Under the pieces are notes generated by a model that did no database searches, was not told the origin of the DNA, and saw only the letters and a list, made by a program, of their open reading frames with translations. From Bacilli bacterium (GTDB lineage Bacteria; Bacillota_I; Bacilli_A; RFN20; CAG-826), in contig JAZQOV010000011.1 of the NCBI GenBank assembly GCA_045628045.1, positions 4,912 to 68,911 on the forward strand: a stretch of DNA of 64,000 nt, read 5' to 3'. The translations under genes were made by a program, and so were the position numbers. Every line of letters begins with the position of its first letter. Position 1 is the stretch's first letter. This document shows positions 38,557-56,484 of the stretch, piece after piece.

Positions 38557-41500
38557 ATGAAAAAATTATTACAATTATTACTTGCGCTTACTATGGCAAG
38601 ACCAGCTGCATATGCTGAGAAAAATAAGACATTCAATTATGTTAGTTTTGGTGATTCCCAAACTGCCGGCTTAGGCTTACATGGTTGCGTTCCAGAATGG
38701 TTCTATGAAGATCCTTCGTATTATTGGACAGGAACAAACCCAATCACTGGAGAAAAAATAAAGAGTGGTTACTTCGCATCGGGATATTATTTCCAATCAG
38801 AAGATAGCTATCCAAGATTAATTGAAAAGGCATTACAAAGAGAATACAAAAATGTAAACTTCAAACCTGCCGCAATTAATGCATTTAGAGCCGAAACTCT
38901 TAAACATCTTCTTTACGGCGAACCAATGACTCATGTCTATGATCAATTTATGGCATCTGACTATATTAGTGGTTCTGAAGCAGAAAGACATGAAACTTAC
39001 ACAATTAATGGTAAGGTTTATACTTACGATAAGGCAAAAACAAGCGTAAGTGCTGAAATGATTAGCGCAGTCGAAAATGCTGATTTAATCACATACGATT
39101 TAGGCGCAAACGATTTCGGTGGATTCTTTATGTTTGGATCTTTTGCTTCTTACCTTGAAAAATACGGAATTAAAGTCACAGATTTATATGAACTTATTCC
39201 AGCCGAATATGCTGATATTTATTATTCAACAAAAGGCTATATTTTAAATATGATTCTTGAATCTGCTGGAGAAGCTATTCCTGCAGAATTACTTTCATCA
39301 CTTACATCATATGTTGATATGTTTGTTTATTCATTAGTGTCATTCATAGTTAACTTTGATGCCACTATGGAAAGAATTTATACATTAAACCCAGATGTTG
39401 AAGTTGTCGTTATGTCAATTCAAAACATCTATAAAGATGCACAAGCAGCAATGGGTGATATGGTTCTCCCACTCGGTGACATCATAGGTGTATTAATGAC
39501 TATTGCTAATGCATATACATCATTCTTCTCACCATATGCTAATAAGTATTATTATGTTGATTTTGGTAATGAACACGTTCACGATCATATCGATGAACTC
39601 GAAACATGGTCATCACAAAGATCATTCTTAAATACTTCACTTACACGTTATGCTGAATTAGAAAGATTAATGGGTTATGGTGAAATTATTGATTCATTCA
39701 ATGTTTACTCAGAACTCTTAGTTGAATATACTCTTAAGAACGAAATTGCAGCAAGAGAAAACGTTATCGTCGGTGGAAGACAACTTACATTTGACGAAAT
39801 CGTCAATTCAAATTCCTATGCTTTAAGAAGCATTAAGAATAGAATTCAAAAAGAATTAGCTGTTAAAACAAAACTTTCTTATTATGCTCATGCTAGAGCA
39901 TTTGTATGTTCATTTGAAAACAAGACCATGGCCATGGAAGCCACATGGGGCGATCCAGCACTTGATCAAATCAGTGTTATCGCAAAAGAATATCAAGATA
40001 AATTTAATCCAAATCTTAGCGAAGAAGCTAATATCTTAAATGTTATTAATGATCTTGATAAAGCAATTACTGCTGAATATTCAGGAGCAGAGAACGCTGA
40101 TAAACAAGCTGCATTATTTGCACAATTATTAGGTACTGGTTATGCTTATGCATTTATGTGCCACAGATCTGTTGAAGGTCATAAAGAATGTGCAGAAAGA
40201 GTACTTGCAGCATTCCACGCAAAGAATAATAAGAGAACAACTGGTAAAGAAGGCTTACTCGCTGCATTACCATCAATCTTATTTAACTTTAATAAAGAAA
40301 AGAGCTATCAAACTGTAGCTCAAGTAGTTGCAGCAATTACCCCATTTATCGTTGGTGGTAAGATCAATGAAGGCTATATCGTTTCAACACTTGATGAACT
40401 TCTTGCCTTTATCGATAACGCTGAACAATACGTTACAGAAAACGAAGAAGCTGTTGTAAATGTTAAGACAGCAATTGATAGCTTAGTTGAACAACTTGGT
40501 TTAACTGAACAATTTGCAGAATTACTTGCAAGCAATCCATTATTAAAAGAATTCTACGAAAATACTGAAGAAATGCTCATCAAGACATTCGGTGATGCAA
40601 GACTCGCATTAAAGATTGTCGAATTTGTTGAAATACTCAGAAATACATTCGTTGGAAGAGATATTGCTGTTGCAGTTTCATATGCAGTTGGCGAAGTCTT
40701 AAAAGATCTCGGCATTGCATTAGCTGAAATTGTTAAGGTTGCAGAAGGCATTGGCGAAAAAGTTCATGAAGCAATTATGAACACTCCAAGTGCTATCTCA
40801 TATGCTATTAAAGCAATTGAAGAAGCTCTTGGCGTTGTCGCTGATAAAGTAATGGCAGCTCTTGACTATGCTGGCCACGTTGCTGGTGAAGTTAAAGATA
40901 AAGCAATTGAAGTTTCAATCGAAGCACTTCATGCAATTGATAAGGCATTTGATTGGACAGGTGATCAACTTAAGAATTTAGTTGAATTCATTGCTAAAAC
41001 ATTTGTTAAAACTGTAAATGCTACTGAAGAAGCTGCTAAAAATGCTGCTGTTGCAACATATAACGCAGTTAAATATGTAGCAGAAGAAGTTGGTAATTCA
41101 GTTGACTTTGTCTTAGGAGAATTATCAGAGATTCCAGGAATCATTGGCGAAGCTATAGGCGATGCCCGTGCATTTACTGAATCAGTCTTATCATGGGCAG
41201 GTAAACAAGTTAGCAAGGCATTCTCTGCTGTTGTTGATGTCCTTGATAGTATTCCAGGCGCAGTTAAAGAAGGTGCAGAATTTGTTGCCTCAGTAATTGC
41301 TGATCTTATTGGAAAAGCAAAAGATGCTATCGGTGATGTTGTCAGTTTCGAAAAAGAAGTTGCTGAAAAAATCTATAATGCTGGTAAATCAGCTGTAGAA
41401 TATGTTGTCGATGAAGTTTCTAAGGCAATTCCAGAAGTTGTTGAATTTGTCGAAGATGCAGCAAAATTCGTTTCTGACGGAGTTAAAGCATATGTTAATT

Positions 41501-42129
41501 TTGTAAGAGAAACCATTGCTTCAATTCCAGGTGCTATCCGTGATGCAGTTGATAATATTGGCGAAGTTGCAAGTAAGATCTTCAACTCATTATCTGATTT
41601 CTCAAAAGAAGCAATTACCACAGTTATTAATGTAGCTGGTGAAATCGCTGGTAATGTTGAAGATGCAGTTAAAGCAGGAGCTTCATTTATTGCTGATGCA
41701 GTTTCAGAAATTGCTGGTAATGTTGGCGACTTCATTGGAAGCGTTATTGAATTCTTTACAGGAAATAGAAGAGTTACAAGAGGTGCTCCAGTACCACAAG
41801 AATATCATGGTATTGAAGCTCTTGAAGAATTCGTTGCAAAGATTCAAGAAACATTAGCAAAAGCTGAAGATGTCAGCCTTGAAACTGTTGCTGTGCTTCT
41901 TGGTTATGTTACCAAAGTTATTCCGGCAGCAATTCAAGAAGTCTATACAATGGCTGTTAAAGGAGTTAATGAATTTGTCATTGCTTCTTATGAAAAACTT
42001 GCAAGCACTGTAATGAGCGAAGTTTGTGGCTTTGTTAGTTCAGTTGCTCCAGTTGCAATGAGCGTCTACTCAGACCTCTTAGCAGCATTATCAAGTGCAT
42101 TCATTGCATGGGCTCCATTATTCAAATAA
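38557..42129 (+). CDS. secreted SGNH/GDSL hydrolase fused to a long amphipathic-helix repeat region
   Basis: Signal peptide ..PAAYA/E. Block I YVSFGDSQTAGLG, block III DLGANDFG, block V-like HRSVEGH. The C-terminal ~600 aa are A/V/E/K-rich helical repeats. Confidence 0.75.
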   Translation: MKKLLQLLLALTMARPAAYAEKNKTFNYVSFGDSQTAGLGLHGCVPEWFYEDPSYYWTGTNPITGEKIKSGYFASGYYFQSEDSYPRLIEKALQREYKNVNFKPAAINAFRAETLKHLLYGEPMTHVYDQFMASDYISGSEAERHETYTINGKVYTYDKAKTSVSAEMISAVENADLITYDLGANDFGGFFMFGSFASYLEKYGIKVTDLYELIPAEYADIYYSTKGYILNMILESAGEAIPAELLSSLTSYVDMFVYSLVSFIVNFDATMERIYTLNPDVEVVVMSIQNIYKDAQAAMGDMVLPLGDIIGVLMTIANAYTSFFSPYANKYYYVDFGNEHVHDHIDELETWSSQRSFLNTSLTRYAELERLMGYGEIIDSFNVYSELLVEYTLKNEIAARENVIVGGRQLTFDEIVNSNSYALRSIKNRIQKELAVKTKLSYYAHARAFVCSFENKTMAMEATWGDPALDQISVIAKEYQDKFNPNLSEEANILNVINDLDKAITAEYSGAENADKQAALFAQLLGTGYAYAFMCHRSVEGHKECAERVLAAFHAKNNKRTTGKEGLLAALPSILFNFNKEKSYQTVAQVVAAITPFIVGGKINEGYIVSTLDELLAFIDNAEQYVTENEEAVVNVKTAIDSLVEQLGLTEQFAELLASNPLLKEFYENTEEMLIKTFGDARLALKIVEFVEILRNTFVGRDIAVAVSYAVGEVLKDLGIALAEIVKVAEGIGEKVHEAIMNTPSAISYAIKAIEEALGVVADKVMAALDYAGHVAGEVKDKAIEVSIEALHAIDKAFDWTGDQLKNLVEFIAKTFVKTVNATEEAAKNAAVATYNAVKYVAEEVGNSVDFVLGELSEIPGIIGEAIGDARAFTESVLSWAGKQVSKAFSAVVDVLDSIPGAVKEGAEFVASVIADLIGKAKDAIGDVVSFEKEVAEKIYNAGKSAVEYVVDEVSKAIPEVVEFVEDAAKFVSDGVKAYVNFVRETIASIPGAIRDAVDNIGEVASKIFNSLSDFSKEAITTVINVAGEIAGNVEDAVKAGASFIADAVSEIAGNVGDFIGSVIEFFTGNRRVTRGAPVPQEYHGIEALEEFVAKIQETLAKAEDVSLETVAVLLGYVTKVIPAAIQEVYTMAVKGVNEFVIASYEKLASTVMSEVCGFVSSVAPVAMSVYSDLLAALSSAFIAWAPLFK

Positions 42130-43504: not shown

Positions 43505-46321
43505 ATGAAAAAAAGTATCTCTGGAATCTTGTTAGCATCCGTTATGTCACTCGGCTTTTTAGCTGCACCTAGTACAGTTAAGGAATCAGGAAGTGCAGAG
43601 GAAGAAACAGCCATTACTTTACGCGCGAAGGCAAAAGAGGAAAGAAATTGTTTTATTTCCACTTTAGTTGAAAACATTACATCTGGGAAAACATATACCT
43701 TTAAAATTGATGGAAAGGATGTCGGTCGTTTTAGACTAACCAAATATAAAAAAGGCTGGGCAATTTCTAAGGGAACAATGTTTGTCGGCATTCAAAATAA
43801 GAGAATTGTCTACAAATTAACCCCAACTGAATGGAATTATGAAGATGGTGCATTTAGCCTCCCAGTAAAAAAAGTAAATTTTGGTTTTATCCATATTGAT
43901 ACTTCCGAACAACCAACCCAATACATTAAATCATTTAAAGTTGGTGCAAGATTAACCACCGAAAAAACTAACGTTGAAATTTATAACGTTATTCACACTG
44001 CGCACGCAATGACCGACTGGATTGATTGCGAAGATGGTGTACACCACAAGAAAGTTTGTTTAAATGAATGTGGTTACGAAGAAATTGGCGTTCATAACTT
44101 TGGTGAATTTAATAGTTCGCTTTATTGTCTTGATTGTGGCGCTATTAATCCAGGTGATCCTGAAGTTAATATTTCTGCTGCATTTAGAGAAGTAGAAACA
44201 GTCAATTATTTGAACATTCTTGTTGGAAAACCATTTAAATACACTACATATTATGCAGACGTTGATGTTTCATATAATAACGTTGGTATTTCCAAAGTTG
44301 AATTAAGAATGAATGAACAAGGCGACTTTGTCGAAGGATATAGTTGCTCACTAAATTCAAGAATCAAAACTCTTGAAGTTAGAGTTACCGATACACGCAA
44401 CAATGTTTACAACGAAGTATTCAAAAACCTCATTGTTTCATTTGATTTACAAGGTAAAGCATCAAAAATCGCTCCTATTACACATGTGGGCGAAGGCGAT
44501 AAAATCGCTGCTCCAGAAAGACCAGCTCCAACAAAAGATGAAATCTTTGCTGGCTGGTACAAAGAAGCAGAATGCGAAAATCCTTGGGATTTCGAAGTTG
44601 ATACTGTCGAAGATGATACAGTTTTATATGCTAAGTACGTTAAAGGAAATACCCTTTCAAGTGTTTTAAGCTTAAGCTATGACATCTTCCCATACGCAAC
44701 AAGCGCAACCCCAGTTCCAACAAAATCTTGGGTCAATGGCAAAGGCATTAGAGCATACATTTCAGGTGAAAACCTTGTTCTTTTAAACGGCACGAAGAAA
44801 TTAACACTTCCTCTTGCAACCGAAATGTCTATTAACGAAAACAATGAATACATCATTCAAGAAGGATCTGTTACTTGGAAATTCAACCTTCTTAGATACT
44901 TTGGATTTGATTATTTAGGATATTTTGAAATCGAAGGTTCAGAAGGCTTTGATGGTGCTTATGGTAAAACAAGTTCAAGACTTACAACAGTTATTGCAAA
45001 TGCAACAGGTATGGGTGGTTTCCCAGTTGGTGAAGCTCGTCCAGTAAATGCTTGGTCCAATGAAAAAGGAAATCGTTTATATGTAGATTCTGCTACTGGT
45101 GCAATTACAATTGAAAGCCCTAATAAAGAAGCAATTGTTCTTGAAAACAATGTTCCTGTTAATGTTTTTGATAACTATGTTATCAGAGATGAAGAAAATA
45201 ACATTAAGTTAATGCTTAACACTGAAAATGGTAAATTAACTTCTATTGAAGTTGTTACACTTGGATCATCTGAGGAAACTTCCGATTTCGGAACATTCAT
45301 TCCAGCATATGATTTAGGTAGCCTTTTAGGTACCACATTCCCAGTTACAGATATTAACAAAGCTCCACTTGATGCTTGGTTAAATGGTAATGGCGGAAAA
45401 GCATATATTGATGCAAATGGTAATTTTGCTATTGCAGATAACAACGGAATTGTTTACTCAGATTCCTTAGAAAAACCATACGTTTACAAAGATGGTTACT
45501 ATGTAAATGTCGGTGCTACTGAAGAAAATTATGTTAAAGTTGGTTATGTGGATGATGTTGTAACCTCAATTATTGTTAATGGTAGCTTTGGTAGCGGTGC
45601 AAATGGCACTTACACAGCTTTAGGAATTACTGTTTCATCTGTATTAGACACACTTAAAGTAATCTTCCCATATTTCAATGGAAATGGTGAAGTTTGGAGC
45701 AGTGCTTCTGGCGCAACAGTTTATTATGATGAAGATGCAAAAGCTATCGTTTTCAACACATTCTCACTTGCAGATACAACTGCATGTATTAGAGATGGTG
45801 AAAACTATGTTTGCACATATAAGAAAGGCTATGACAGCGCAAAGGTTACCTTTGTTATGGATAATGGAACATTAACATCAATTGTTGTTTCAGATGCTTC
45901 CCTTATGATTAGACGTGCAAATGGTGAATACGTTCCAACATCATTTATTGAAACTGTTAAAGATGTATTAGATTGCTCTAGTAGAGCATTCCCAGTTAGA
46001 TCAGCTGAAAATAATAACAATTCTTCAGCAATTCCAGAAGAAGCTTGGGAAAATGAAAATGGCATTAAGTGCTTCATTCAAAATGGCGAAGATACTCAAT
46101 CATTAGTCTTCTGTGAAGTCTTAGACGTCAAAGGCTACAAGATTGAAAAGAAAATCACTATCGACAATATTCTTGATAATATTGATCAAGCTGAAGGTGA
46201 TTATGTCTATCAATATTTCACATTTAAGATGACAAGAGGTGTCCTCTCAAGTATTGAAGTTAACTATCCACAAGGTAGCTTATATATTTCATTCAACGGT
46301 TCATATCAACCAGTTCTTTAA
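43505..46321 (+). CDS. secreted repeat protein with one Listeria-Bacteroides-type module
   Basis: AAGGAAGG RBS. Signal peptide. FAGWYKEAECENPWDFEVDTVEDDTVLYAKYV. A recurrent module P(V/L)..W.N..G...YI..... Confidence 0.65.
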   Translation: MKKSISGILLASVMSLGFLAAPSTVKESGSAEEETAITLRAKAKEERNCFISTLVENITSGKTYTFKIDGKDVGRFRLTKYKKGWAISKGTMFVGIQNKRIVYKLTPTEWNYEDGAFSLPVKKVNFGFIHIDTSEQPTQYIKSFKVGARLTTEKTNVEIYNVIHTAHAMTDWIDCEDGVHHKKVCLNECGYEEIGVHNFGEFNSSLYCLDCGAINPGDPEVNISAAFREVETVNYLNILVGKPFKYTTYYADVDVSYNNVGISKVELRMNEQGDFVEGYSCSLNSRIKTLEVRVTDTRNNVYNEVFKNLIVSFDLQGKASKIAPITHVGEGDKIAAPERPAPTKDEIFAGWYKEAECENPWDFEVDTVEDDTVLYAKYVKGNTLSSVLSLSYDIFPYATSATPVPTKSWVNGKGIRAYISGENLVLLNGTKKLTLPLATEMSINENNEYIIQEGSVTWKFNLLRYFGFDYLGYFEIEGSEGFDGAYGKTSSRLTTVIANATGMGGFPVGEARPVNAWSNEKGNRLYVDSATGAITIESPNKEAIVLENNVPVNVFDNYVIRDEENNIKLMLNTENGKLTSIEVVTLGSSEETSDFGTFIPAYDLGSLLGTTFPVTDINKAPLDAWLNGNGGKAYIDANGNFAIADNNGIVYSDSLEKPYVYKDGYYVNVGATEENYVKVGYVDDVVTSIIVNGSFGSGANGTYTALGITVSSVLDTLKVIFPYFNGNGEVWSSASGATVYYDEDAKAIVFNTFSLADTTACIRDGENYVCTYKKGYDSAKVTFVMDNGTLTSIVVSDASLMIRRANGEYVPTSFIETVKDVLDCSSRAFPVRSAENNNNSSAIPEEAWENENGIKCFIQNGEDTQSLVFCEVLDVKGYKIEKKITIDNILDNIDQAEGDYVYQYFTFKMTRGVLSSIEVNYPQGSLYISFNGSYQPVL

Positions 46322-46333
46322 TAAAAAATAACA

Positions 46334-48325
46334 ATGATTAACTTTGTTAAAGCGATAAAAATAATATGCGCTACTTTTAGCGCACTTACATCAATGTTTG
46401 GCATTAAGCCAAATCATGATAAAAAATACACCTATGTTTCTTTAGGTGATTCCATGTCTACTGGTTTTGGCTTTGATGACTATTATATTGACGACGAAAT
46501 CATTCCGGTTGAATCAATGGAACATTATAGACCAGAAGACGGTCATAAAAATGTTCATGGATTTTTAAGAGAGGCCAAAGAAGCTTATCCAACCTTAGTT
46601 CATTCTTATCTAAAAGATAAATATGGAGAAGAGAATGTTGAGCATATTCAATTAGCGGTTAACGTTACAAGAATTGATGATATTTATTATCATCTTAACA
46701 AAGACGCAAAAACTGACGAATTTTATCAAGCCCTTTTTGAAGATAATGGTCATGGTGATCAATGGAATGATGTTTTTGCTAATAGAGCAAGACAATTTGG
46801 TTACACTACAAATGAAGATAACAACGAAGCTGTAGTTGAAACATACGTAAATTCTATAAAGAAAGCCGATTTAATAACTTTAAATGCTGGATTTAATAAC
46901 TTTGGTTGTTTCTTTAGCGGAAAATTAGGCGACATTATTGAAGGTTTGCCTATTGCCGAAAGCTTTGGAGGTCACGACACTCTCCAAGGATTCTTAGATA
47001 GAACTGGTGTTGATCTTAATATTGGCGAAGTTTATGAGCAAATAAATGATATTTTTCATAGTTACACTGGACTTGATTTAACTTCGTATGAAAAGGTCAA
47101 AGTTGGTGGCTATAACATTAATGTTAAATATTTATTAGAACTCATTGTTACTGCCTTTGCTTCATATTGTTATTATATGAATGAGACCACTAAATTAATT
47201 TATGAATTAAATCCAGATGTTGAATTAGTGGTAATTGGATTATTTAATATCCTAAAGGGTATTAAACTTTCTGTTAATGATATAACAATTGATGTTGGTG
47301 AAATCACTAGCAAGATTTTTGAACTTGTTAATTTACATACAGCCTTAGGAACAGAATGTTCAAATAAATACAAATTCGTGGATTCTACAGATTTAAACGT
47401 TGGTATTCATGCTGAAGATATTGCTAATGGCACAATGGACGAAGAACAAGTAAGACGTGCATACATTGGCTTATACACAATGGCTAAAGAAGTTGGTGTT
47501 GATATTCCAACATTTACTATAGTAAAAGACCAAATTAATGGAGCCATGATTAATTTAGGCAATCTTGATTTTGATATCTCTGAATATATTGTTGATGAAG
47601 ATGAAAATCCATTAACTGATGCTGAGGCTTATGAGACTAAGTGGTTAGCATCATCCTTGGTGTTTGGTGAAGAGAATGCTAACAGCATTAATAGCGTGCT
47701 TAACGAGTATTATGGCGTCATTGATTCACTCTTTAATGTTCTAAAACGCGCCACAAACTCAAAAACAGTCACTTTAGAAGCTCTTTCTAGTTTAGGTGAA
47801 AGTATTTCTGTTGAACAAATTAATAATGGCGATTTTGATGGTTTAATTAATATTTATGTTCGCATTGTTATCAACAATGGAATGTGGAGTCATCCTAACG
47901 AAGAAGGGCACATTGAAATTTCAAAAGCAGTTATTGAAACACTTGAAAGTCATAAAACTGCAAAAGAAGTTGGAGAAGAAAGAATTAGAAACATTCTCAC
48001 TAACATTACTTCTGAAATAGATTCGCTAGTGGATGAGTTAAAAACTCAAATTGGAATTGAGACAAAAACACTTCTTGTAAAGTTTATTGGAGAAAAAGGT
48101 TATGAAAAAGTAATTGAAGTCTCCACAAAAGTTTATAAACTCATTAAAGAATGCATTAGAATTTTGAATTTTATAGATCAATTTTTATCTTTGATAAAAG
48201 AATACAATCCTATTCTTTATAAATTCATCGAAAATTTTAATGGTAATTTGCAAAAATATTTGGTTAATCCATTTATTAAGAAGATTTTATCTTCAAATCG
48301 TTTTTGCAATATTTTATTAGGATAA
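46334..48325 (+). CDS. SGNH/GDSL hydrolase family protein (third paralog)
   Basis: YVSLGDSMSTGFG, LNAGFNNFG, WSHPNEEGH. Confidence 0.75.
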   Translation: MINFVKAIKIICATFSALTSMFGIKPNHDKKYTYVSLGDSMSTGFGFDDYYIDDEIIPVESMEHYRPEDGHKNVHGFLREAKEAYPTLVHSYLKDKYGEENVEHIQLAVNVTRIDDIYYHLNKDAKTDEFYQALFEDNGHGDQWNDVFANRARQFGYTTNEDNNEAVVETYVNSIKKADLITLNAGFNNFGCFFSGKLGDIIEGLPIAESFGGHDTLQGFLDRTGVDLNIGEVYEQINDIFHSYTGLDLTSYEKVKVGGYNINVKYLLELIVTAFASYCYYMNETTKLIYELNPDVELVVIGLFNILKGIKLSVNDITIDVGEITSKIFELVNLHTALGTECSNKYKFVDSTDLNVGIHAEDIANGTMDEEQVRRAYIGLYTMAKEVGVDIPTFTIVKDQINGAMINLGNLDFDISEYIVDEDENPLTDAEAYETKWLASSLVFGEENANSINSVLNEYYGVIDSLFNVLKRATNSKTVTLEALSSLGESISVEQINNGDFDGLINIYVRIVINNGMWSHPNEEGHIEISKAVIETLESHKTAKEVGEERIRNILTNITSEIDSLVDELKTQIGIETKTLLVKFIGEKGYEKVIEVSTKVYKLIKECIRILNFIDQFLSLIKEYNPILYKFIENFNGNLQKYLVNPFIKKILSSNRFCNILLG

Positions 48326-48330
48326 TTATT

Positions 48331-49440
48331 ATGAAAAAGAATAAGGCTTTGGATTTCTTATCAACATCACTTAACGGGATGGCGTATGGTCTTTTTTCTA
48401 CACTTATTATTGGAACAATAATTGCTACAATTGGTTTAATTTTCTCAAATTGGAATAATTCCTTTTGTAACTTTATGGTTGATTTATTAGGAACTAATAA
48501 CGTAAACAAAGGAATATCATTTATACTAAAAAATTTAACTGGTGTTGGAATTGGTGTTGGAATTGCCTTATCTTTAAAGCTTGGTTCTCTTGAAACAATT
48601 ACATTAGGAATAGTTGGTGAAATTGCAGCACTTGCTGGCAAAAATTCTAATGGTTTTCCTGTTATTACTTCAACCTTTGCAGTTGGTGATCCATTGCTTA
48701 TTTTTGTAGCTTGCATTTTGGTTGTTCTACTTTTTAAAGTAGTTTTAAAGAAAAAGACTTCTTTAGATATATTTATAATTCCTCTTTTAGGCGTCGTTGG
48801 AGGCGTTTTAATTACCCTTGTGGCATATTATCCAACTTGGGCAATTACATATGGAATTAGATGGTTAATTTCTGAAGGCACAACACTTATGCCATTCCTC
48901 ATGGGAATTGTAGTCGCTGTATTAATGGGAGTTGCACTTACTGCACCTATTTCTAGTGCGGCAATTGCTGCTATTATCTTTGGCTCAGGAGTTACAATGA
49001 GCGAAGGACTAGCTTTAGCTAGTGGAGCAGCGGTTGTGGGTTGCTCAACTCAAATGATTGGTTTTGCAATTCAATCAATTAGAGATAACAAATTTGGGCA
49101 AGTAGTTTCTGTAGGAATCGGAACTTCTATGCTTCAATTTAAAAATATCATTAAAAAGCCAGTTATTTGGCTTCCAACAATTATTGCGTCTGCTATTTTA
49201 GGTCCAATTTCGACTTGTGTATTAAAGCTTCAATGTTTTGGAGTAGCATCTGGAATGGGTACAGCAGGACTTGTTGGTCAAATTGGAACTTATTCATCAA
49301 TGGGAAATACATGGCAAACCTGGGTTGGAATATTCGGAATGCAGATTATTTTCCCAATGATTCTTGTATTTTTTATTGATCTTATTTTTAGGAAATTTGG
49401 CCTCATTAAGAAGGGTGACTTATCACTAAAAAATGAATAA
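48331..49440 (+). CDS. polytopic membrane protein, PTS EIIC-like (PfoR-type) candidate
   Basis: ATG at 48331; the track start at 48304 overlaps the upstream gene. About 10 TM helices. LNGMAYGLFSTLIIGTI recalls EIIC_2/PfoR proteins; from memory and unverified. Confidence 0.4.
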   Translation: MKKNKALDFLSTSLNGMAYGLFSTLIIGTIIATIGLIFSNWNNSFCNFMVDLLGTNNVNKGISFILKNLTGVGIGVGIALSLKLGSLETITLGIVGEIAALAGKNSNGFPVITSTFAVGDPLLIFVACILVVLLFKVVLKKKTSLDIFIIPLLGVVGGVLITLVAYYPTWAITYGIRWLISEGTTLMPFLMGIVVAVLMGVALTAPISSAAIAAIIFGSGVTMSEGLALASGAAVVGCSTQMIGFAIQSIRDNKFGQVVSVGIGTSMLQFKNIIKKPVIWLPTIIASAILGPISTCVLKLQCFGVASGMGTAGLVGQIGTYSSMGNTWQTWVGIFGMQIIFPMILVFFIDLIFRKFGLIKKGDLSLKNE

Positions 49441-49496: not shown

Positions 49497-49868
49497 CTAG
49501 ATCTTCTTAAAATGTTTCTTAGTCTTCTGTGCGTCTAATAATTCTTTTTCCAATTCTTCTTTCTTTGGGAGATGAGTTATATATTTAGTCACAAAGATTT
49601 GGTTCGTAATATTTCCTAGTGCATATTCTACCTGTATGTGATCATAGTCAGTACACATGACAATACCAACAGGGTCATTGTCGCTCGATTTATTAACGTT
49701 TTCCTTAAAATAATTTAGGTAAGTGTTAATTTGGCCCATTACATCTTTTTTAAATGGAGTGGCTTTTAGCTCAATGAGCACATAACATTTAAGATTTTCA
49801 TTATAGAACACTAAATCGACAAAATATTTCTTGTTATCAATTAAAAATTGATACTGATTATCATTGAA
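49497..49868 (-). pseudogene. DUF1016/YhcG-type PD-(D/E)XK nuclease, C-terminal fragment
   Basis: The frame reads FNDNQYQFLIDNKKYFVDLVFYNENLKCYVLIELKATPFKKDVMGQINTYLNYF.., the nuclease core (D..ELK). It continues the N-fragment at 51240-51887. Confidence 0.75.
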
Positions 49869-49995
49869 CTACCCCCACTTAAACATTCTATGTTTAGAAG
49901 ATGGGGGATTCCTACTCAAGAATCCTCGAGGATTCAGTGTCGATAGGCTAACCCCGTAGTTCCTACGGTTTGGTGGACTACCACTATTGTTTTTG
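49869..49995 (-). ncRNA. candidate TnpB omega/right-end RNA scaffold
   Basis: Unusually GC-rich stretch abutting the tnpB 3' end. Minus-strand hairpins CCGTAG-gaa-CTACGG, GAATCCTCGAGGATTC and CCCCCATCTTCTAAACAT-agaa-TGTTTAAGTGGGGG, ending at the element boundary. Confidence 0.55.
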
Positions 49996-51132
49996 AAGTA
50001 CTAATCTAATTCCTTCTTTTTTGATATTAATTGCTGCATTTATATCTCTATCATGCTTTCTACCACAGATAGGACAAATCCAATCTCTATCATTTAATTC
50101 AAGACTTTTGTTGATGTAACCACAATCACTGCAAGTTTTACTAGACGGAAAGTACCTATCTACTTTTATTAATTCCTTACCTAACCATCTTAATTTGTAA
50201 TCTAGAAAATTGACAAAAGTTCCATATGCTCGATCAGATAGATTTCTGCCCAACTTCATTTTTGTATCTTTTGATTGCATTGATTTCAAATCTAAATTTT
50301 CTACAAAAACATAATCGTATTTATTTGCAATTTTTCTGGATTCTTTATGCAAAAAATCTTTCCTAGAATTTGAAATATGAAGTTGAAGTTTTCTGACTTT
50401 TTGCCAGGATTTAATGGAGTTTTTGCTACCTTTTTGGCATTTTGATGCTCTTCTGGTTAATTTTGCAAGTTTCTCCATTTCGTTTTGAAGATACTTTGGC
50501 ATATCTGCGTGATTGCCATCGCTATCGACATAAAGATGTGACAAAGAAAAATCTAATCCTATTGAGTTGTTGATATCAAGTTTTTCAAGCTTGTCGAATA
50601 ACTCGACGTTTGGATTATCTTCTTCACCAGTCAATGTCACAAAATACATGTTTGCAACTCTAGAGATGGTGACTGTGGTAAAAGAGAATGATTCAGGCAT
50701 CAAACGAGATACTACAACTTTAACTCTGCCTAATTTAGGAATTTGGATTTCGTTACCATCAAGGCGGAGGTTATTGTTGATTTTCATAGTTGTGTAGCTA
50801 TGATCATTTCTTTTGGATTTAAATTTTGGAAAAGAACCTCTATGTTCAAAGAAATTAATATACGCAGCATGTAAATGAATAATGGCTTGTTGCAAAGCAA
50901 CACTATCAACTTCTTTTAAGTATTCATACCCTTCTTTGTAATCAGGAAGTATTTTGACTAAATCAAATTTTCTCAATTTAAAAGAAGGATCTTCCGCGTG
51001 CTTTTCGACACACATTTCAAGAAAATCATTATAGACTTGGCGAACGCATCCTAAAGTTTTCTCAATTTGTTGTTTTTGAGAAGAATTAGGATAGATTCGA
51101 AATTTATAAGCTTTCTTTATTTTCTTTTCCAT
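49984..51132 (-). CDS. tnpB: TnpB (OrfB_IS605) RNA-guided endonuclease
   Basis: RuvC-like IGLDFS, VFVENLDLKSM, RDINAAINI. Zn finger CSDCG...CPICG. N-terminal YKFRIYPN typical of OrfB. Confidence 0.9.
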   Translation of the reverse strand: MEKKIKKAYKFRIYPNSSQKQQIEKTLGCVRQVYNDFLEMCVEKHAEDPSFKLRKFDLVKILPDYKEGYEYLKEVDSVALQQAIIHLHAAYINFFEHRGSFPKFKSKRNDHSYTTMKINNNLRLDGNEIQIPKLGRVKVVVSRLMPESFSFTTVTISRVANMYFVTLTGEEDNPNVELFDKLEKLDINNSIGLDFSLSHLYVDSDGNHADMPKYLQNEMEKLAKLTRRASKCQKGSKNSIKSWQKVRKLQLHISNSRKDFLHKESRKIANKYDYVFVENLDLKSMQSKDTKMKLGRNLSDRAYGTFVNFLDYKLRWLGKELIKVDRYFPSSKTCSDCGYINKSLELNDRDWICPICGRKHDRDINAAINIKKEGIRLVLQKQ

Positions 51133-51239
51133 ACTTATATTATACTATCATTTCTTAAGAAATGATAGTGTTATTTCATTTTTTGCTTGCAATTCATCCC
51201 GCCGCTTTACGAGCTTCAAGCGTGGGTCTTCTTGCTAAA

Positions 51240-51887
51240 TTAGATAAATCTAAAACCTGAGCCTAGTTCTAAAAGGAATTCTTTCATGTGCGTTATAATA
51301 CCTTTTTCAATTTCTTTTTCCCTAAGGTTAAAACCTTTTTTGAAGAAATTAATTACAATCGGATCTACCATTACATCTTTTGGTTCAACAATCTGATTCC
51401 CAAGAGTGGATAATTGATTCTTTTTTGCCTCTATATTTTCTTTTGAGCCCAGTAAGATTCTTTGATAGTATCCCGATTGTATTTGTCTTTTTAAATCCCT
51501 GACAGACCATCTTTGTTTTGCACACTCTATTTCATAGAATTTTCTTTCTTCATCATTTTTTACATTTAGAAGACAAAAGTAATGCCCCCATGATAAAGTG
51601 GGAAACAGTGTTTCCCAATTTTTATATATAATATAAAAATTTAACATTGCTTTAATGTTTCTTCTTGAATACCCAGAGCCGAATTCTTTGGTTAGCTCAT
51701 TAGAAATTGAACTAATCGTGCGCTTTTTATAATCGCTTTTTCCTTTATTGGAGTCGATGTCTTTTTGAATTTGTTCCCCTATATACATATAAAGCTTAAG
51801 TAATTCAGTATTAACGTTATATATGATTTTTGCCTTCGTTGTTTCTATTGCATTTTTTAAATTTATTACTAGTTTATTTTCTTTCAT
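51240..51887 (-). pseudogene. DUF1016/YhcG-type nuclease, N-terminal fragment
   Basis: GGAGGAGG RBS. WSVRDLKRQIQSGYYQRIL and ..FLLELGSGFRFI* match the DUF1016 N-region layout. The stop is created at the IS junction. Confidence 0.75.
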
Positions 51888-52121: not shown

Positions 52122-53297
52122 ATGTATGACATTAATATAAAAGTTTGCGAAAATACTAAAGTTTTTATTTTTAATGGTCCTATCGACTCTAACGTTACAG
52201 ACGAAATTAAAAATTTCGTTGAATCGAATTCTTCTGGCTCTGATAGCGTTATTTTTGATATGGAAAAAGTTCCATACATGTCTAGTGCAGGCCTTAGAGT
52301 AGTGCTTAAGACTGCTAAATCAGTAAAAGAATTTGAAGTTATCAATGCTTCTGTAGAGTTATATAACATTTTCGACATGGTTGGGTTTACCCAAATGATC
52401 AAAATTAAGAAAGCCATGAGAGAAATTTCTATCGAAGGAAAAGAACTTATTGGAGAAGGTTATATGGGTAAAGTCTATAGACTTGATCCAGATACAATCA
52501 TCAAAGTATTTAAAAGAACCTCTGATACTTCTGATATCGAAAGAGAAATTTCTTTGGCAAAGAAAGCATTCATTCTTGGAGTTCCTACCGCAATACCTTT
52601 TGACATAGTCAAAGTTAAAGAAGGTGGCTACGGTTCTGTATTTGAACTTCTTAAATCATCTTCATTTAATAAATTATTTATTAATCATCCTGAGAAGGAA
52701 GATGAATACATTAAGATGTACGTGAACATCATTAAGACAATTACTTCTATTGAGGCTAAAAACCCTAGTGAGTTCCCTCGTAAGATAAATGATGCGTTAA
52801 CTTGGGTAAATGGTCTTAAGGAAGCAAAAGCCTATGATGAAGCTACACTTGCTAAACTTGAAAAATTAGTTAACACAATTCCTGAGAGTTCGCACTTAAT
52901 TCATGGTGATTGCCACATCAAAAATATTATGATGCAAGGTGATGAACCATTCCTTATTGATATGGACACTTTGGGTGTTGGGCACACCATATTTGAGTTA
53001 ACTGCAATATTCTTAACTTATATCGGATATCCTGATAAATTCCCAGGAAATGTCCAGGAATTCCTAGGTATTTCCGATGAAACCGCTAAGAAATTATTCT
53101 ATTCAACAATTGATTCTTTATACGCAGATAAATCAAAAGAAGAAAGAAACACAATTGTTGAGAAATGTGCTTTGTTTGGTTATATGTGGTTAACATACAA
53201 GACATTATTATTTGAACCAGAAAATAAAGTAAGACTTGATAACGCAAAAGAGAAAGTTATGAGTCTTATTGATAAATACGACACACTTAATTTTTAA
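52122..53297 (+). CDS. STAS domain fused to an APH/choline-kinase-like phosphotransferase domain
   Basis: AAGAGG RBS. STAS string YMSSAGLRVVL. Kinase strings GEGYMGKVYRL..IIKVFK, HGDCHIKNIMM, LIDMDTLG. Confidence 0.75.
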   Translation: MYDINIKVCENTKVFIFNGPIDSNVTDEIKNFVESNSSGSDSVIFDMEKVPYMSSAGLRVVLKTAKSVKEFEVINASVELYNIFDMVGFTQMIKIKKAMREISIEGKELIGEGYMGKVYRLDPDTIIKVFKRTSDTSDIEREISLAKKAFILGVPTAIPFDIVKVKEGGYGSVFELLKSSSFNKLFINHPEKEDEYIKMYVNIIKTITSIEAKNPSEFPRKINDALTWVNGLKEAKAYDEATLAKLEKLVNTIPESSHLIHGDCHIKNIMMQGDEPFLIDMDTLGVGHTIFELTAIFLTYIGYPDKFPGNVQEFLGISDETAKKLFYSTIDSLYADKSKEERNTIVEKCALFGYMWLTYKTLLFEPENKVRLDNAKEKVMSLIDKYDTLNF

Positions 53298-53315
53298 TGA
53301 AAGAAGGACACGAAA

Positions 53316-53612
53316 ATGGAAATAAACAAACTTGTAGAGAAAGACACTCTCACACTTGCTATTGAAGGAAGACTTGATACTTTAACATCTCCAACCCTTC
53401 AAGAAACAATTAATTCATCACTTGAAGGCATTGTTCATTTAGTAATTGATCTAAAGAAAGTTGTCTATATTTCGAGTGCCGGATTAAGAGTAATTTTAAG
53501 TGCACAAAAATTAATGAATACGAAAGGTGATATGGTTGTAAAAAATTGTTCAGCTGAAGTCCTTGAAGTTTTTGAAATGACAGGATTTACTGAGATTTTA
53601 ACGATAAAATAA
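53316..53612 (+). CDS. STAS-domain anti-sigma-factor antagonist (SpoIIAA/RsbV-like)
   Basis: 98 aa. LAIEGRLDT.T...L, YISSAGLRVIL, EVFEMTGF. Confidence 0.85.
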   Translation: MEINKLVEKDTLTLAIEGRLDTLTSPTLQETINSSLEGIVHLVIDLKKVVYISSAGLRVILSAQKLMNTKGDMVVKNCSAEVLEVFEMTGFTEILTIK

Positions 53613-53613
53613 T

Positions 53614-56484
53614 ATGGAATTCCTGGATATTTTTAAATTTATAATAGCTGCAATCATTCCAATTCTTTTAAGCGTTGGCTGTATTTATCTTGAGAAAACA
53701 AGAAGATTTTCTAAGTTAAACAAATACGTTAAAGCTTTAATATTTGGAGTTATTTTTGGCATCAGTTCAATTAGTGGAACTTTACTTGGTTTAAAACTAC
53801 CAAATGGCGCAATCATCAACGTGCGTGATGCCTCTCCTATTATATGTGGTCTTCTTTTTGGTGGACCATCAGGAATTTTGGCTGGCTTAATTGGCGGCGG
53901 CTTTAGAGCACTTACTCCTCTTTGGGAACCATCGACAGCTTACACAGTTGTTGCATGTTCTATTTCAACCGCAATGGCTGGTGTATTTACTGTGTTTGTT
54001 AGACATTTCATCTTTGATGATAAAAAAGGTACTTGGTACTATGGATTCTTCCTTGGCGTATTAGTTGAAGACTTCCATATGATGATGTCTGTGCTTACAC
54101 ACACAGAAGATATTGTTAAGGTTTATAACTCAGTTATAAAAGTATGTACAGTTCCAATGGTATTAGCAAATTCATTAGCGGTAATGATTGCAATTATTAT
54201 TGTTAATTTAATAAATCACGAGAAAATATTTGAAAAAGAAGTCAGAACTCATATTTCTACAAAGGTTCAGGTTTCTTTGATTCTTTCTCTTGTTGTTTCT
54301 TATGTTGCAACTGCGTTATTTACGAATATGTCTGTTAATAAAGTTGTTCAAACAAATATTAAAGGTCAATGTGAAAACGCTATAAGCGATGTTATTAATA
54401 ATGTTGATGACACAATCAACAATGTTATGAGTGACAAACTTGATGAAGTCGCAATAAAACTTCTTGATGAAGTAAAACCATTAGAAAAAGATAGGCTTTT
54501 ACGTAAAGAAGCATTAGTAAGTATTCTTAATGATTTCTCTGGTGAGATTTCTGAAATCAATATTGTTGGCACTGATGGTTTTGTTCATTATTCCACAGAT
54601 CAATACGATTTTATGGAAGACGGAAGTGGACCATTTAACATGGAAATTGGTGACCAATCAAGAGAATTTAATGTCTTACTTAAAGAAGGCGAAACAAACT
54701 ATTTTATCCAGGAATTCCGCGAGATTTCTGCGTATGATGGCGGAAAATCAATGAAATATGCTGGCTATAGATTTGATGCTGAAGACATTGAATCAGACTT
54801 CTGTTATTTCCAAATTGGTTTAGATGCTGCAAGGTATCACGAACTACTTCAAGACTATGTTGATGAATGTGCTAAATTTAGACACATTGGTGAAGAAGGA
54901 TTCGTTGTAGTTAGCGATGAAAATGGTGCAATTGTTTCAACAATCGTTGATTGTCCATTTACTGAAACAATTGATGTAAATAAGTTCCTAAACGATGGTT
55001 ACGATAAATATTACACTTACTCTAAATTTGTTGAAGGTTACTACATTGTTGCTTTTGCAGGCGCTGAAGAAAGTGATTTAGCATCCGTAATTTCATTCAC
55101 TGCAATTTCTCTTGCTGAAGTTTTTGTTTATTTGCTTTTATATTGCGTTTTATATATAGCAGTTAAACGTAGAATCGTTGATAAAATTAAAACTATAGGC
55201 TTAAGCCTAAATGAAATTTCTTCAGGAAACTTAGATGTTGTTGTTAATCAAAGAGACAGTTATGAATTTGATTCATTAAGTAACGACATTAATAAAACTG
55301 TTGGAACTCTTAAAGAGTTCATTGCGAAAGAAGCTAATAAGAATGCTGAAGAGTTAGCATTTGCTAAAAACATTCAATATTCTGTTCTTCCAACCGCTTT
55401 CCCAATGAATGATAGATTTGAAATTTATGCTTCTATGTCAACCGCCAAGACTGTTGGTGGTGACTTCTATGATTTCTATTTTATAGATAGAGAGCATGTA
55501 TTAATTGAAATCGCTGATGTTAGTGGAAAAGGTATTCCTGCCGCTATGTTCATGATGAGAGCAAAATCTGTTCTTAAATCACTTATAGAATCAGGTATTG
55601 GAATTGAAAATGCCTTTATTGAAGCAAATAGAAAACTTTGTCAAGGTAATGATACTCAAACATTTATTACGGTTTGGGGTGGAATTATCGATTTAACTAC
55701 AGGACATGTTGACTTTGTCAACGCTGGTCATAATCCTCCAATTATTTGTAGAGATGGCAAATTTGAGTACTTACATAGTAAACCAGGCTTTGTTTTAGCA
55801 GGTTTAGAAGGATTTAAATACGTTAAGCAAAGCTTTGACATTAAGCCAGGTGATATGATTTATCTTTATACTGATGGTGTTACTGAAGCTAATAACGAAA
55901 AACATGAACTTTATGGAGAAGAAAGACTTCTTAAAGCAATTGGAGATAAAACATATACTTCTAAATCTATTTGTGAAACTGTCTCAAAGAGTTTGAAGAA
56001 GTTTGTGAATGATGCAGAACAATCTGATGATATTACAATGCTCGCATTTAAATTCTATGATGTTGAGCTCGCTAATATTAAAGTTGTGGATGCAGACTTA
56101 AAGAATTTACCAGAAATCATAGATTATATCGATGATTTGCTTGATAAAAATAACGCCACATTATCTGCAAAATCACAAATCGATGTAGCAGTGGATGAGA
56201 TATTCTCAAATATCGCATTCTACGCTTATCCAGAAGGCCAAGTTGGTAAGGTCAAAGTTTCAGTCATTATGTCTAAAGACAATGAAGAAATGACCATTAT
56301 CTTTGAAGATAAAGGAAAAACATATAACCCACTTGAGAAAGAAGATCCAGATACTTCACTATCTCTAGAAGAGAAGTCTATTGGTGGACTAGGTATATTT
56401 ATTGTTAAAAAGACAATGGATTCATTAGAATACGATAACGTTAATGGTCATAACGTATTAACCCTCAGAAAGAAGATTCATTAG
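53614..56484 (+). CDS. membrane sensor (LytS-type 5TM) - extracytoplasmic domain - HAMP - PP2C/SpoIIE phosphatase - RsbW/SpoIIAB-like HATPase fusion
   Basis: N-terminal multi-TM region. HAMP-like KRRIVDKIKTIGLSLNEISSGNLDV. PP2C strings GGDFYDF, DVSGKGIPAAMFM, LYTDGVTEA, DDITMLAF. C-terminal VDEIFSNI.., GGLGIFIVKKTMD. Confidence 0.8.
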   Translation: MEFLDIFKFIIAAIIPILLSVGCIYLEKTRRFSKLNKYVKALIFGVIFGISSISGTLLGLKLPNGAIINVRDASPIICGLLFGGPSGILAGLIGGGFRALTPLWEPSTAYTVVACSISTAMAGVFTVFVRHFIFDDKKGTWYYGFFLGVLVEDFHMMMSVLTHTEDIVKVYNSVIKVCTVPMVLANSLAVMIAIIIVNLINHEKIFEKEVRTHISTKVQVSLILSLVVSYVATALFTNMSVNKVVQTNIKGQCENAISDVINNVDDTINNVMSDKLDEVAIKLLDEVKPLEKDRLLRKEALVSILNDFSGEISEINIVGTDGFVHYSTDQYDFMEDGSGPFNMEIGDQSREFNVLLKEGETNYFIQEFREISAYDGGKSMKYAGYRFDAEDIESDFCYFQIGLDAARYHELLQDYVDECAKFRHIGEEGFVVVSDENGAIVSTIVDCPFTETIDVNKFLNDGYDKYYTYSKFVEGYYIVAFAGAEESDLASVISFTAISLAEVFVYLLLYCVLYIAVKRRIVDKIKTIGLSLNEISSGNLDVVVNQRDSYEFDSLSNDINKTVGTLKEFIAKEANKNAEELAFAKNIQYSVLPTAFPMNDRFEIYASMSTAKTVGGDFYDFYFIDREHVLIEIADVSGKGIPAAMFMMRAKSVLKSLIESGIGIENAFIEANRKLCQGNDTQTFITVWGGIIDLTTGHVDFVNAGHNPPIICRDGKFEYLHSKPGFVLAGLEGFKYVKQSFDIKPGDMIYLYTDGVTEANNEKHELYGEERLLKAIGDKTYTSKSICETVSKSLKKFVNDAEQSDDITMLAFKFYDVELANIKVVDADLKNLPEIIDYIDDLLDKNNATLSAKSQIDVAVDEIFSNIAFYAYPEGQVGKVKVSVIMSKDNEEMTIIFEDKGKTYNPLEKEDPDTSLSLEEKSIGGLGIFIVKKTMDSLEYDNVNGHNVLTLRKKIH

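Follow-up and report, generated by a model that had tools for sequence, protein, structure and literature searches.

A probable tnpB-only IS200/IS605-family insertion, with a predicted omega-RNA scaffold and guide, in a DUF1016/YhcG nuclease gene of an uncultured Bacilli lineage

In this work, a DNA stretch of 64,000 nucleotides from an uncultured Bacilli bacterium (GenBank assembly GCA_045628045.1, contig JAZQOV010000011.1, positions 4,912 to 68,911) was analyzed; it is called the window below, and all positions and strands refer to it. On the minus strand, an open reading frame (ORF) of 215 codons (51240..51887), terminating in ..ELGSGFRFI*, is followed by 107 nt of non-coding DNA, an ORF of 382 codons, approximately 120 nt of non-coding DNA, and a frame open from 49868 to a stop at 49497. 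The outer two frames are the parts of a DUF1016/YhcG gene for a PDDEXK nuclease, and the middle one is tnpB. The 1,380 bp at 49864..51243 (-) are very probably a non-autonomous, tnpB-only (IS1341-type) insertion of the IS200/IS605 family inside that gene. The main features are as follows.

51244..51887 (-): 5' part of the DUF1016/YhcG gene, with DUF1016_N and the first approximately 45 residues of the PDDEXK domain; T51244 is the last host base.
51244..51248 (-): target-adjacent motif (TAM), the target pentanucleotide TTTAT; host sequence, forming the F-I codons of the conserved GFxF[IV] motif.
49864..51243 (-): whole element, 1,380 bp, no target duplication; placed from 11 left ends, 8 right ends and closure of the host frame.
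49984..51132 (-): tnpB, 382 amino acids (aa), with RuvC D194/E278/D363 and zinc-ribbon CxxC at 334 and 353.
49864..49868 (-): transposon-encoded motif (TEM), the right-end cleavage motif TTCAA; last 5 nt of the element.
49497..49863 (-): 3' part of the DUF1016/YhcG gene, the rest of the PDDEXK domain with the D..ExK core VDLVFY / IELK; T49863 completes the split Ile codon.

Searches against Pfam showed that the N-terminal fragment contains DUF1016_N (E = 7e-38) and positions 2–46 of the YhcG_C profile, and that the C-terminal fragment matches positions 47–156 of the same profile (E = 2e-35). Because the profile is split in this way, the outer fragments are contiguous parts of one domain. Neither polypeptide carries DUF1016_N and YhcG_C complete, the C-terminal domain being cut between profile positions 46 and 47. 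When the fragments were joined in silico as ..GFRFI + DNQYQF.., the repaired protein of 336 aa matched more than 3,000 DUF1016 proteins, the best with 80% identity along 99% of the protein. Twelve sequences could be aligned without a gap at the junction, where the five most similar have ELGSGF[RK]FIDNQYQF; intact homologs (up to 80% identity) likewise run ..ELGSGFRFIDNQYQF.. across the junction without a gap. The DUF1016/YhcG gene is thus one gene disrupted by an insertion, as the first-pass annotation, made from the sequence with no database search, had proposed. That annotation had the first frame stop at 51240 and the second resume at 49868 as FNDNQYQFLIDNKKYFVDLVFYN..; the ORFs are as described, and the residues FN at the start of the resumed frame (TTC AA/T, slash marking the junction) come from the right end of the element and not from the host gene. 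Since the D..ExK core (VDLVFY, IELK) sits in the 3' fragment, which lacks a proper start, the nuclease was presumably inactivated by the insertion.

The middle ORF encodes a TnpB with the domains HTH_OrfB_IS605, OrfB_IS605, and Cas12f1-like_TNB (PF12323, PF01385, and PF07282), all scoring over the curated cut-offs. Its best match among real solved structures was ISDra2 TnpB (8bf8/8h1j; E approximately 2e-57, residues 6–375), the AI-designed nuclease 9yyg scoring marginally higher. D194, E278, and D363 align with D191, E278, and D361 of ISDra2 TnpB, so the RuvC triad is intact, and the zinc ribbon consists of CSDC at 334 and CPIC at 353, bearing out the nuclease motifs read by eye in the first pass.

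Related copies were found by scanning one genome per species. Ten were obtained from four metagenome-assembled genomes of uncultured horse-gut Bacilli, including Candidatus Fiminaster equi, with TnpB proteins 91–94% identical in aa sequence; each copy has different, unrelated flanks, so the family occupies several genomic sites. No second copy or solo scaffold was found elsewhere in the 64-kb window. Phage and plasmid collections contained distant relatives only, with at most 43% aa identity on plasmids and short DNA patches of 70–84% in phages. The tnpB ORF was intact in all 8 full copies. Between the window TnpB and 7 full-length relatives, the ratio of nonsynonymous to synonymous substitution rates (dN/dS) was 0.05–0.09 at dS 0.38–0.67, indicating strong purifying selection.

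Comparison of the copies located both ends. At the left, TTTAT was invariant directly 5' of the element in 11/11 copies and was followed by (C/T)TAATTTAGCAAGAAGAC.., the flanks being unrelated upstream of TTTAT. The base after TTTAT was C in 10/11 copies, the remaining one (L007) having TTTATT. At the right, all 8 complete copies ended in ..AAGTGGGGGTAGTTCAA with minor variants; the terminal strings ..GTAGTTCAA and ..GGGGGTAGTTCAA are common to all 8, with divergence directly after. The last bases were TCAA in 8/8 (TTCAA in 7 and CTCAA in L007), and the first base past them was T, C, T, A, A, G, A, and T. The right end was set at A49864 because the 8 copies share this ending and their flanks then vary. 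Given this right end, the host frame closes only if the left end is C51243: excising 49864..51243 restores ..AGA TTT AT/T GAT AAT.. (R-F-I-D-N) with nothing duplicated, and the closest intact homolog carries ATT at the split Ile codon. The predicted sequence of the empty allele is ..AGATTTAT/TGATAATCAG.. The element thus lies 3' of a fixed target of 4–5 nt without target-site duplication, as in IS200/IS605 elements, and its TEM TTCAA differs from the TAM TTTAT at positions 3 and 5.

In 3 of the 10 related copies (L005:2540-2594, L007:110-163, and L008:2840-2892), the element directly follows a GC-rich hairpin and a T-run; the terminator T-tract plus AT provides the TTTAT target there, and the intragenic position of the window copy is unusual.

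Secondary structures were found near both ends.

51133..51243 (-): left end (LE) of 111 nt, running from C51243, where the element starts, up to the last base ahead of the tnpB ATG; conserved in 11 copies.
51198..51226 (-): LE subterminal imperfect hairpin, CCCnCGCTT..AAGCGG-T-GGG, a single base being bulged; presumably bound by TnpA.
51144..51169 (-): perfect palindrome of 11 bp, ACTATCATTTC-TTAA-GAAATGATAGT, the 3' arm of which runs into a TATAAT hexamer (51139..51144).
49872..49907 (-): right-end (RE) subterminal hairpin, CCCCCA-T-CTT .. AAGTGGGGG, with a small hairpin inside it; also helix P3 of the scaffold described below.

Across 11 copies, 94.9% of the cells of the LE hairpin were paired, and two pairs showed compensatory changes. 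The RE hairpin was supported by RNAalifold on 8 copies, and its helix (helix 5) covaried in the diverse set described below. Subterminal imperfect hairpins at both ends, each with a bulged base and compensatory changes, together with the absence of terminal inverted repeats, are what IS200/IS605 elements have. The Pfam domains, IS605-type ends, and 1,380-bp boundaries agree with the initial description of the insert as a tnpB-only IS200/IS605 element. All 11 copies retain the stem of the palindrome, with loops that vary and one C-G pair exchanged for G-C; the region 51139..51171 (11–13 bp) scored as terminator-like on the plus strand. The TATAAT hexamer stops 6 nt short of the tnpB ATG. No Shine-Dalgarno sequence precedes the start, pointing to a tnpB message that is leaderless or depends on read-through. 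A promoter scan for tnpB and the RNA gave nothing convincing (17 hits versus 11.5 expected).

The element has no room for tnpA because its left boundary is only 111 nt from the tnpB ATG; a Y1 (HUH) tnpA, as carried by autonomous IS605/IS608-type elements, is not inside it. A screen by motif and size, weaker than a profile search, detected no HUH-motif ORF of 90–250 aa in the 64-kb window, and for this window the earlier statement that the element lacks tnpA and is non-autonomous holds. A motif screen likewise found no plausible Y1 transposase ORF within 3 kb of the ten related copies, and none was adjacent in two plasmid TnpB loci (L013 and L014). In approximately three quarters of cases, no tnpA can be identified close to a tnpB gene (PMC10055086), so the tnpB-only arrangement is typical. 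With no transposase gene adjacent, the gene might be thought a domesticated, nuclease-dead regulator of the TldR kind, or part of an IS607-type element moved by a serine recombinase. We give this next to no credence, as the RuvC triad is intact, an IS605-type TAM and TEM and hairpin ends are present, multiple copies occupy unrelated sites, and no serine recombinase ORF lies beside any copy.

The DNA downstream of tnpB has the following organization.

49864..49986 (-): omega-RNA scaffold, 3' part, with a stop-codon hairpin (49971..49986), P1 (CCGUAG-GAA-CUACGG), nested stem P2, the P3/RE hairpin, and the tail GUAGUUCAA.

The tail of approximately 110–125 nt between the tnpB stop and the right end is the predicted omega-RNA scaffold, a member of a covarying, TnpB-linked RNA class; its 5' limit may lie inside the tnpB ORF. 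The GC content of the post-stop tail was 0.425, the maximum of the element, in a window with a mean of 0.33, and its single-sequence fold was better than those of all 200 shuffled sequences (z = -2.8). It had been described as the most GC-rich and hairpin-dense DNA in the area; for GC content this is correct within the element, but 48920..49039 is richer in GC (0.458). The 120 nt past the stop were 86–94% identical among the 8 copies, versus 75–90% at third codon positions of the adjacent ORF, and the differences were in hairpin loops.

Because such close copies carry little covariation, viral contigs were scanned with the invariant hairpin AACCGTAGNNNCTACGGGG, and at least 120 loci matched (IMG/VR, L015-L134). 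The P1 motif was located 0–200 nt past the C-terminus of a TnpB in 98 of 122 viral-contig hits, and these TnpBs shared 33–54% aa identity with that of the window. A common architecture was observed, consisting of the P1 hairpin, a GG(A/U)UAG linker, an outer stem around a variable hairpin, GAA, a terminal hairpin, and a tail ending ..GUUCA(N). When 34 non-redundant sequences, that of the window among them, were aligned, 97% of the pair cells held standard pairs, versus 33–46% with slid partners. Compensatory changes were present in 15 of 22 pairs, the covariation score was 0.60 versus 0.18 in shuffles, and GUUCA was invariant across the 34 diverse scaffolds. A covariance model built from 23 viral sequences, with the window left out, gave one match in the 64 kb, at 49864..49970 (-) (107 nt, 79.6 bits, E = 1.9e-18, full model). 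This match ends at 49864, the same base as the right end deduced from the copies. Covariation in the 34 sequences and the match to the window-free model bear out the first-pass proposal that the 3' tail is an omega-RNA scaffold.

That the 3' hairpins serve only as single-stranded DNA signals for TnpA was also considered. P3 and the RE subterminal hairpin are the same helix, which is similar to the LE hairpin, and covariation cannot separate top-strand DNA from RNA of the same sense. However, IS200/IS605 ends need one subterminal hairpin, whereas here P1 and the nested P2 stems, three additional helices, show conservation or covariation over approximately 70 nt and track TnpB genes of 33–54% identity. 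Published structures and RNA sequencing of ISDra2 reportedly place the omega RNA in the corresponding region, and this region is omega RNA in published data on ISGst elements (PMC10055086). A role as DNA signal alone is considered highly improbable. Since P1 was selected and the terminal helix is also the RE hairpin of the DNA, the support specific to RNA consists of the nested P2 stems, two helices in all, and the close association with tnpB.

RNAalifold also paired UUGAAUUA, inside the ORF, with UAGUUCAA in the tail; the variation in the 8 copies neither supports nor breaks this pairing, and by eye no consistent partner was seen in the viral sequences. Neither the window nor 12 related viral loci had a match to any Rfam family at its gathering score. 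Ref70 (Enterococcus sRNA 70, RF02841) matched at 49852..49974 (-) with 24.1 bits and E = 0.41, compared with a gathering threshold of 115 bits, and was not accepted; the match runs mainly through the CCGUAG..CUACGG hairpin and the tail, and Ref70 may itself be the omega RNA of a TnpB.

Two viral loci showed other arrangements of the scaffold. On L110 (-), the region extending approximately 150 nt upstream and 105 nt downstream from the motif (offset 3457) is a tnpB-less miniature element, in which a window-like left end (..GGCAAGAAGACTCCCACCTC..GGTGGGAGATGAATTGCC) is joined directly to a scaffold and right end; it resembles the PATE-like elements of Geobacillus. L051:7616-7872 (-) contains two scaffold/right-end units 238 nt apart, the first after tnpB and the second without a preceding ORF; the second could represent either a solo right end or another miniature element nested beside the first.

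The right end, together with the known layout of TnpB reRNA (right-end element RNA), or omega RNA, gives the predicted position of the guide.

49844..49863 (-): predicted guide/target, TGATAATCAGTATCAA(TTTT), 16–20 nt of the host DUF1016 gene directly past the right end; the length is taken from relatives.

The guide is predicted to begin with TGATAATCAGTATCAA at 49863. In the first-pass annotation the TAM was ..TTTATC, the element began at TAATTT, the guide was within TAGTTCAATG, and the right end lay upstream of TAGTTCAA. These boundaries draw some support from the C that follows TTTAT in 10/11 copies, since left-end conservation alone would allow a 6-nt TTTATC, and from an ATC/GAT junction, which likewise gives F-I-D. 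Comparison with other copies, named beforehand as the check on the ends, placed them elsewhere. GTAGTTCAA is conserved in 8/8 right ends with divergence only afterwards, the independent covariance model reaches 49864, and the GUUCA tail is invariant in the 34 diverse scaffolds. A start at TAATTT with an end at TTCAA would break the host frame (TTT ATC TGA), L007 has TTTATT, and the TAM of ISGst2 is the 5-nt TTTAT (PMC10055086). The earlier boundaries are thus scarcely tenable. TTTATC takes in one base of the element (C51243), the TAM being TTTAT in 11/11 copies. The guide proposed there, TAGTTCAATGATAATCAG, starts 8 nt early and contains 8 nt of scaffold, TAGTTCAA, because both the 8 copies and the covariance model end at 49864.

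A mechanism modelled on ISDra2 and ISGst2 can be proposed from what was observed at the locus, i.e., the insertion with its exact size, the conserved TAM and TEM, the two end hairpins, a TnpB that is intact and under constraint, and a tail belonging to the RNA class. The element would have entered by single-strand 'peel and paste' directly 3' of TTTAT, in the F-I codons of GFxF[IV] and without duplication, parting the catalytic D..ExK core from the N-terminal part of the nuclease. A transcript through the scaffold past TTCAA would yield the omega RNA or reRNA, the 3' 16–20 nt of which would copy the downstream host DNA; the scaffold would end at 49864 and the RNA would continue 16–20 nt into TGATAATCAGTATCAATTTT. 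TnpB loaded with this RNA would recognize TTTAT-TGATAATCAGTATCAA.., present in the scarless donor joint or in an uninserted DUF1016 allele, and after cutting of this target, homologous recombination would restore or copy the element. Its own right junction would be protected because TTCAA stands in place of TTTAT. When TTTAT plus the 16-nt target was searched in the window, the sole match was the right junction itself, with TTCAA replacing TTTAT. Mobilization would require a Y1 TnpA in trans. A wider idea, which we regard as very unlikely, is that the TTTAT requirement makes the T-tracts of intrinsic terminators and the TTT-ATx (Phe-Ile) codons of conserved motifs such as GFxF[IV] recurrent landing pads. 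Under this idea, if uninserted DUF1016 alleles with TTTAT and the 16-nt target circulate in the population, the element would be a small homing drive, converting and inactivating a putative restriction-like nuclease gene on entry of such DNA.

Several points weigh against an insertion with these exact ends and a guided, mobile TnpB system. No uninserted allele of the same species was found when the joined L001-L007 flanks were compared by BLAST with the window and all loci and a protein search was run, although no exact-site metagenome search was made. The protein search gave no full-length DUF1016 homolog above 80% identity; the best intact homolog, at 80%, reads TTCATT and not TTTAT at the site; in DNA, the closest intact DUF1016 gene (L012) is 75% identical and lacks TTTAT there. 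The placement of the left boundary to 1 nt, with C51243 in the element, hence rests on frame closure and comparison of right ends. Helix P1 was invariant by construction because the viral sequences were selected with a 16-nt motif derived from the window. From relatives we infer the expression of the RNA, its 5' end, the guide length, and cutting by TnpB. The stem of the LE hairpin has one C-to-A mismatch, private to the window copy, which might weaken recognition by TnpA. The screens found no tnpA in the window or within 3 kb of the ten relatives, and current mobility is only putative.

Some of these points would fit an immobile relic, with no TnpA available, a damaged left end, and TnpB and omega RNA idle or unexpressed. 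No Y1/HUH ORF was found in the 64-kb window or near the ten related copies, the C-to-A mismatch is in the window copy alone, the window has no second copy or solo scaffold, and the tnpB start context is without a Shine-Dalgarno sequence. However, the ORF is intact with all catalytic residues, and strong purifying selection acts among the copies (dN/dS 0.05–0.09). Copies at many sites in related genomes and a 63-member cluster at 90% indicate recent activity of the family, and, with 64 kb of the genome visible, a TnpA acting in trans may be encoded elsewhere. We consider a relic unlikely and retain the interpretation of the locus as a tnpB-only element with an intact TnpB and a predicted omega RNA.

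Several other genes in the window were recorded. Beside the disrupted gene, 52122..56484 (+) encodes a STAS-domain-like/kinase-like fusion, a STAS-like protein of 98 aa, and a membrane protein of 956 aa whose C-terminal part resembles a SpoIIE phosphatase; by these assignments, made by eye, the region looks like a partner-switching module. Large predicted proteins at 38557..42129 and 46334..48325 (+) open with GDS(L)-type motifs (..VSFGDSQTAGLG.. and ..VSLGDSMSTGFG..) and sit among a series of very long ORFs whose N-termini are signal-like (23891..27946, 34100..38488, 43505..46321, and 58417..end). At 19725..20605 (+), two small ORFs, 189 and 104 aa long, overlap; the product of the second (MIYEVKRTKQFKKDFKLAEKQGRNL..) looks like a toxin of the RelE/YafQ type, and the two may be a toxin-antitoxin pair.

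For annotation, DUF1016/YhcG should be entered as one disrupted gene rather than two genes. The 1,380-bp insert should be recorded as a tnpB-only member of the IS200/IS605 family, for which the TAM (TTTAT), the TEM (TTCAA), and the guide are defined. At 382 aa, its TnpB is compact and, given the deduced TAM, scaffold, and guide register, is a candidate editor; many such systems have already been described. The current understanding of TnpB elements is unchallenged by these results, the useful outputs being the corrected boundaries, TAM, TEM, and guide.

Among known systems, the IS1341 group of ISfinder likewise has a single orfB/tnpB between IS605-type ends and no tnpA, and is a classification label only. 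Like the window, the viral scaffolds from IMG/VR (L015-L134) have P1 (CCGUAG-GNA-CUACGG), then the GG(A/U)UAG linker, a P2 stem that covaries and contains an inner hairpin, GAA, a P3/RE hairpin, and GUUCA as the tail; their TnpBs are 33–54% identical to that of the window, and the window P3 has an extra inner hairpin, which is common to L123, L051, and L132. ISDra2 carries tnpA and has the TAM TTGAT. This IS200/IS605 element of Deinococcus radiodurans (PDB 8bf8, 8h1j, and 8exa) resembles the window element in its D/E/D triad, zinc ribbon, and scaffold followed by a flank-derived guide, and differs in that the C-terminus of its TnpB is approximately 30 aa longer.

ISGst2 of Geobacillus stearothermophilus is tnpB-only, with the TAM TTTAT determined by chromatin immunoprecipitation sequencing and interference assays and the TEM TTCAC, and its TnpB2 cleaves the donor joint so that the element is retained (Meers et al. 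2023, PMC10055086). The window element is like it in being tnpB-only and non-autonomous, in the TAM TTTAT, in a TEM differing from the TAM at positions 3 and 5, in a predicted omega RNA within or downstream of the ORF, in a predicted guide from the RE flank, and in the proposed logic of donor-joint cleavage. It differs in the last TEM base, which is A (TTCAA) instead of C (TTCAC), in its host, an uncultured horse-gut Bacilli lineage, and in that the motif screens found no cognate TnpA for it. Nothing outside known family behaviour was found: the element is closest in logic to ISGst2, and ISDra2 provides the nearest solved structure.

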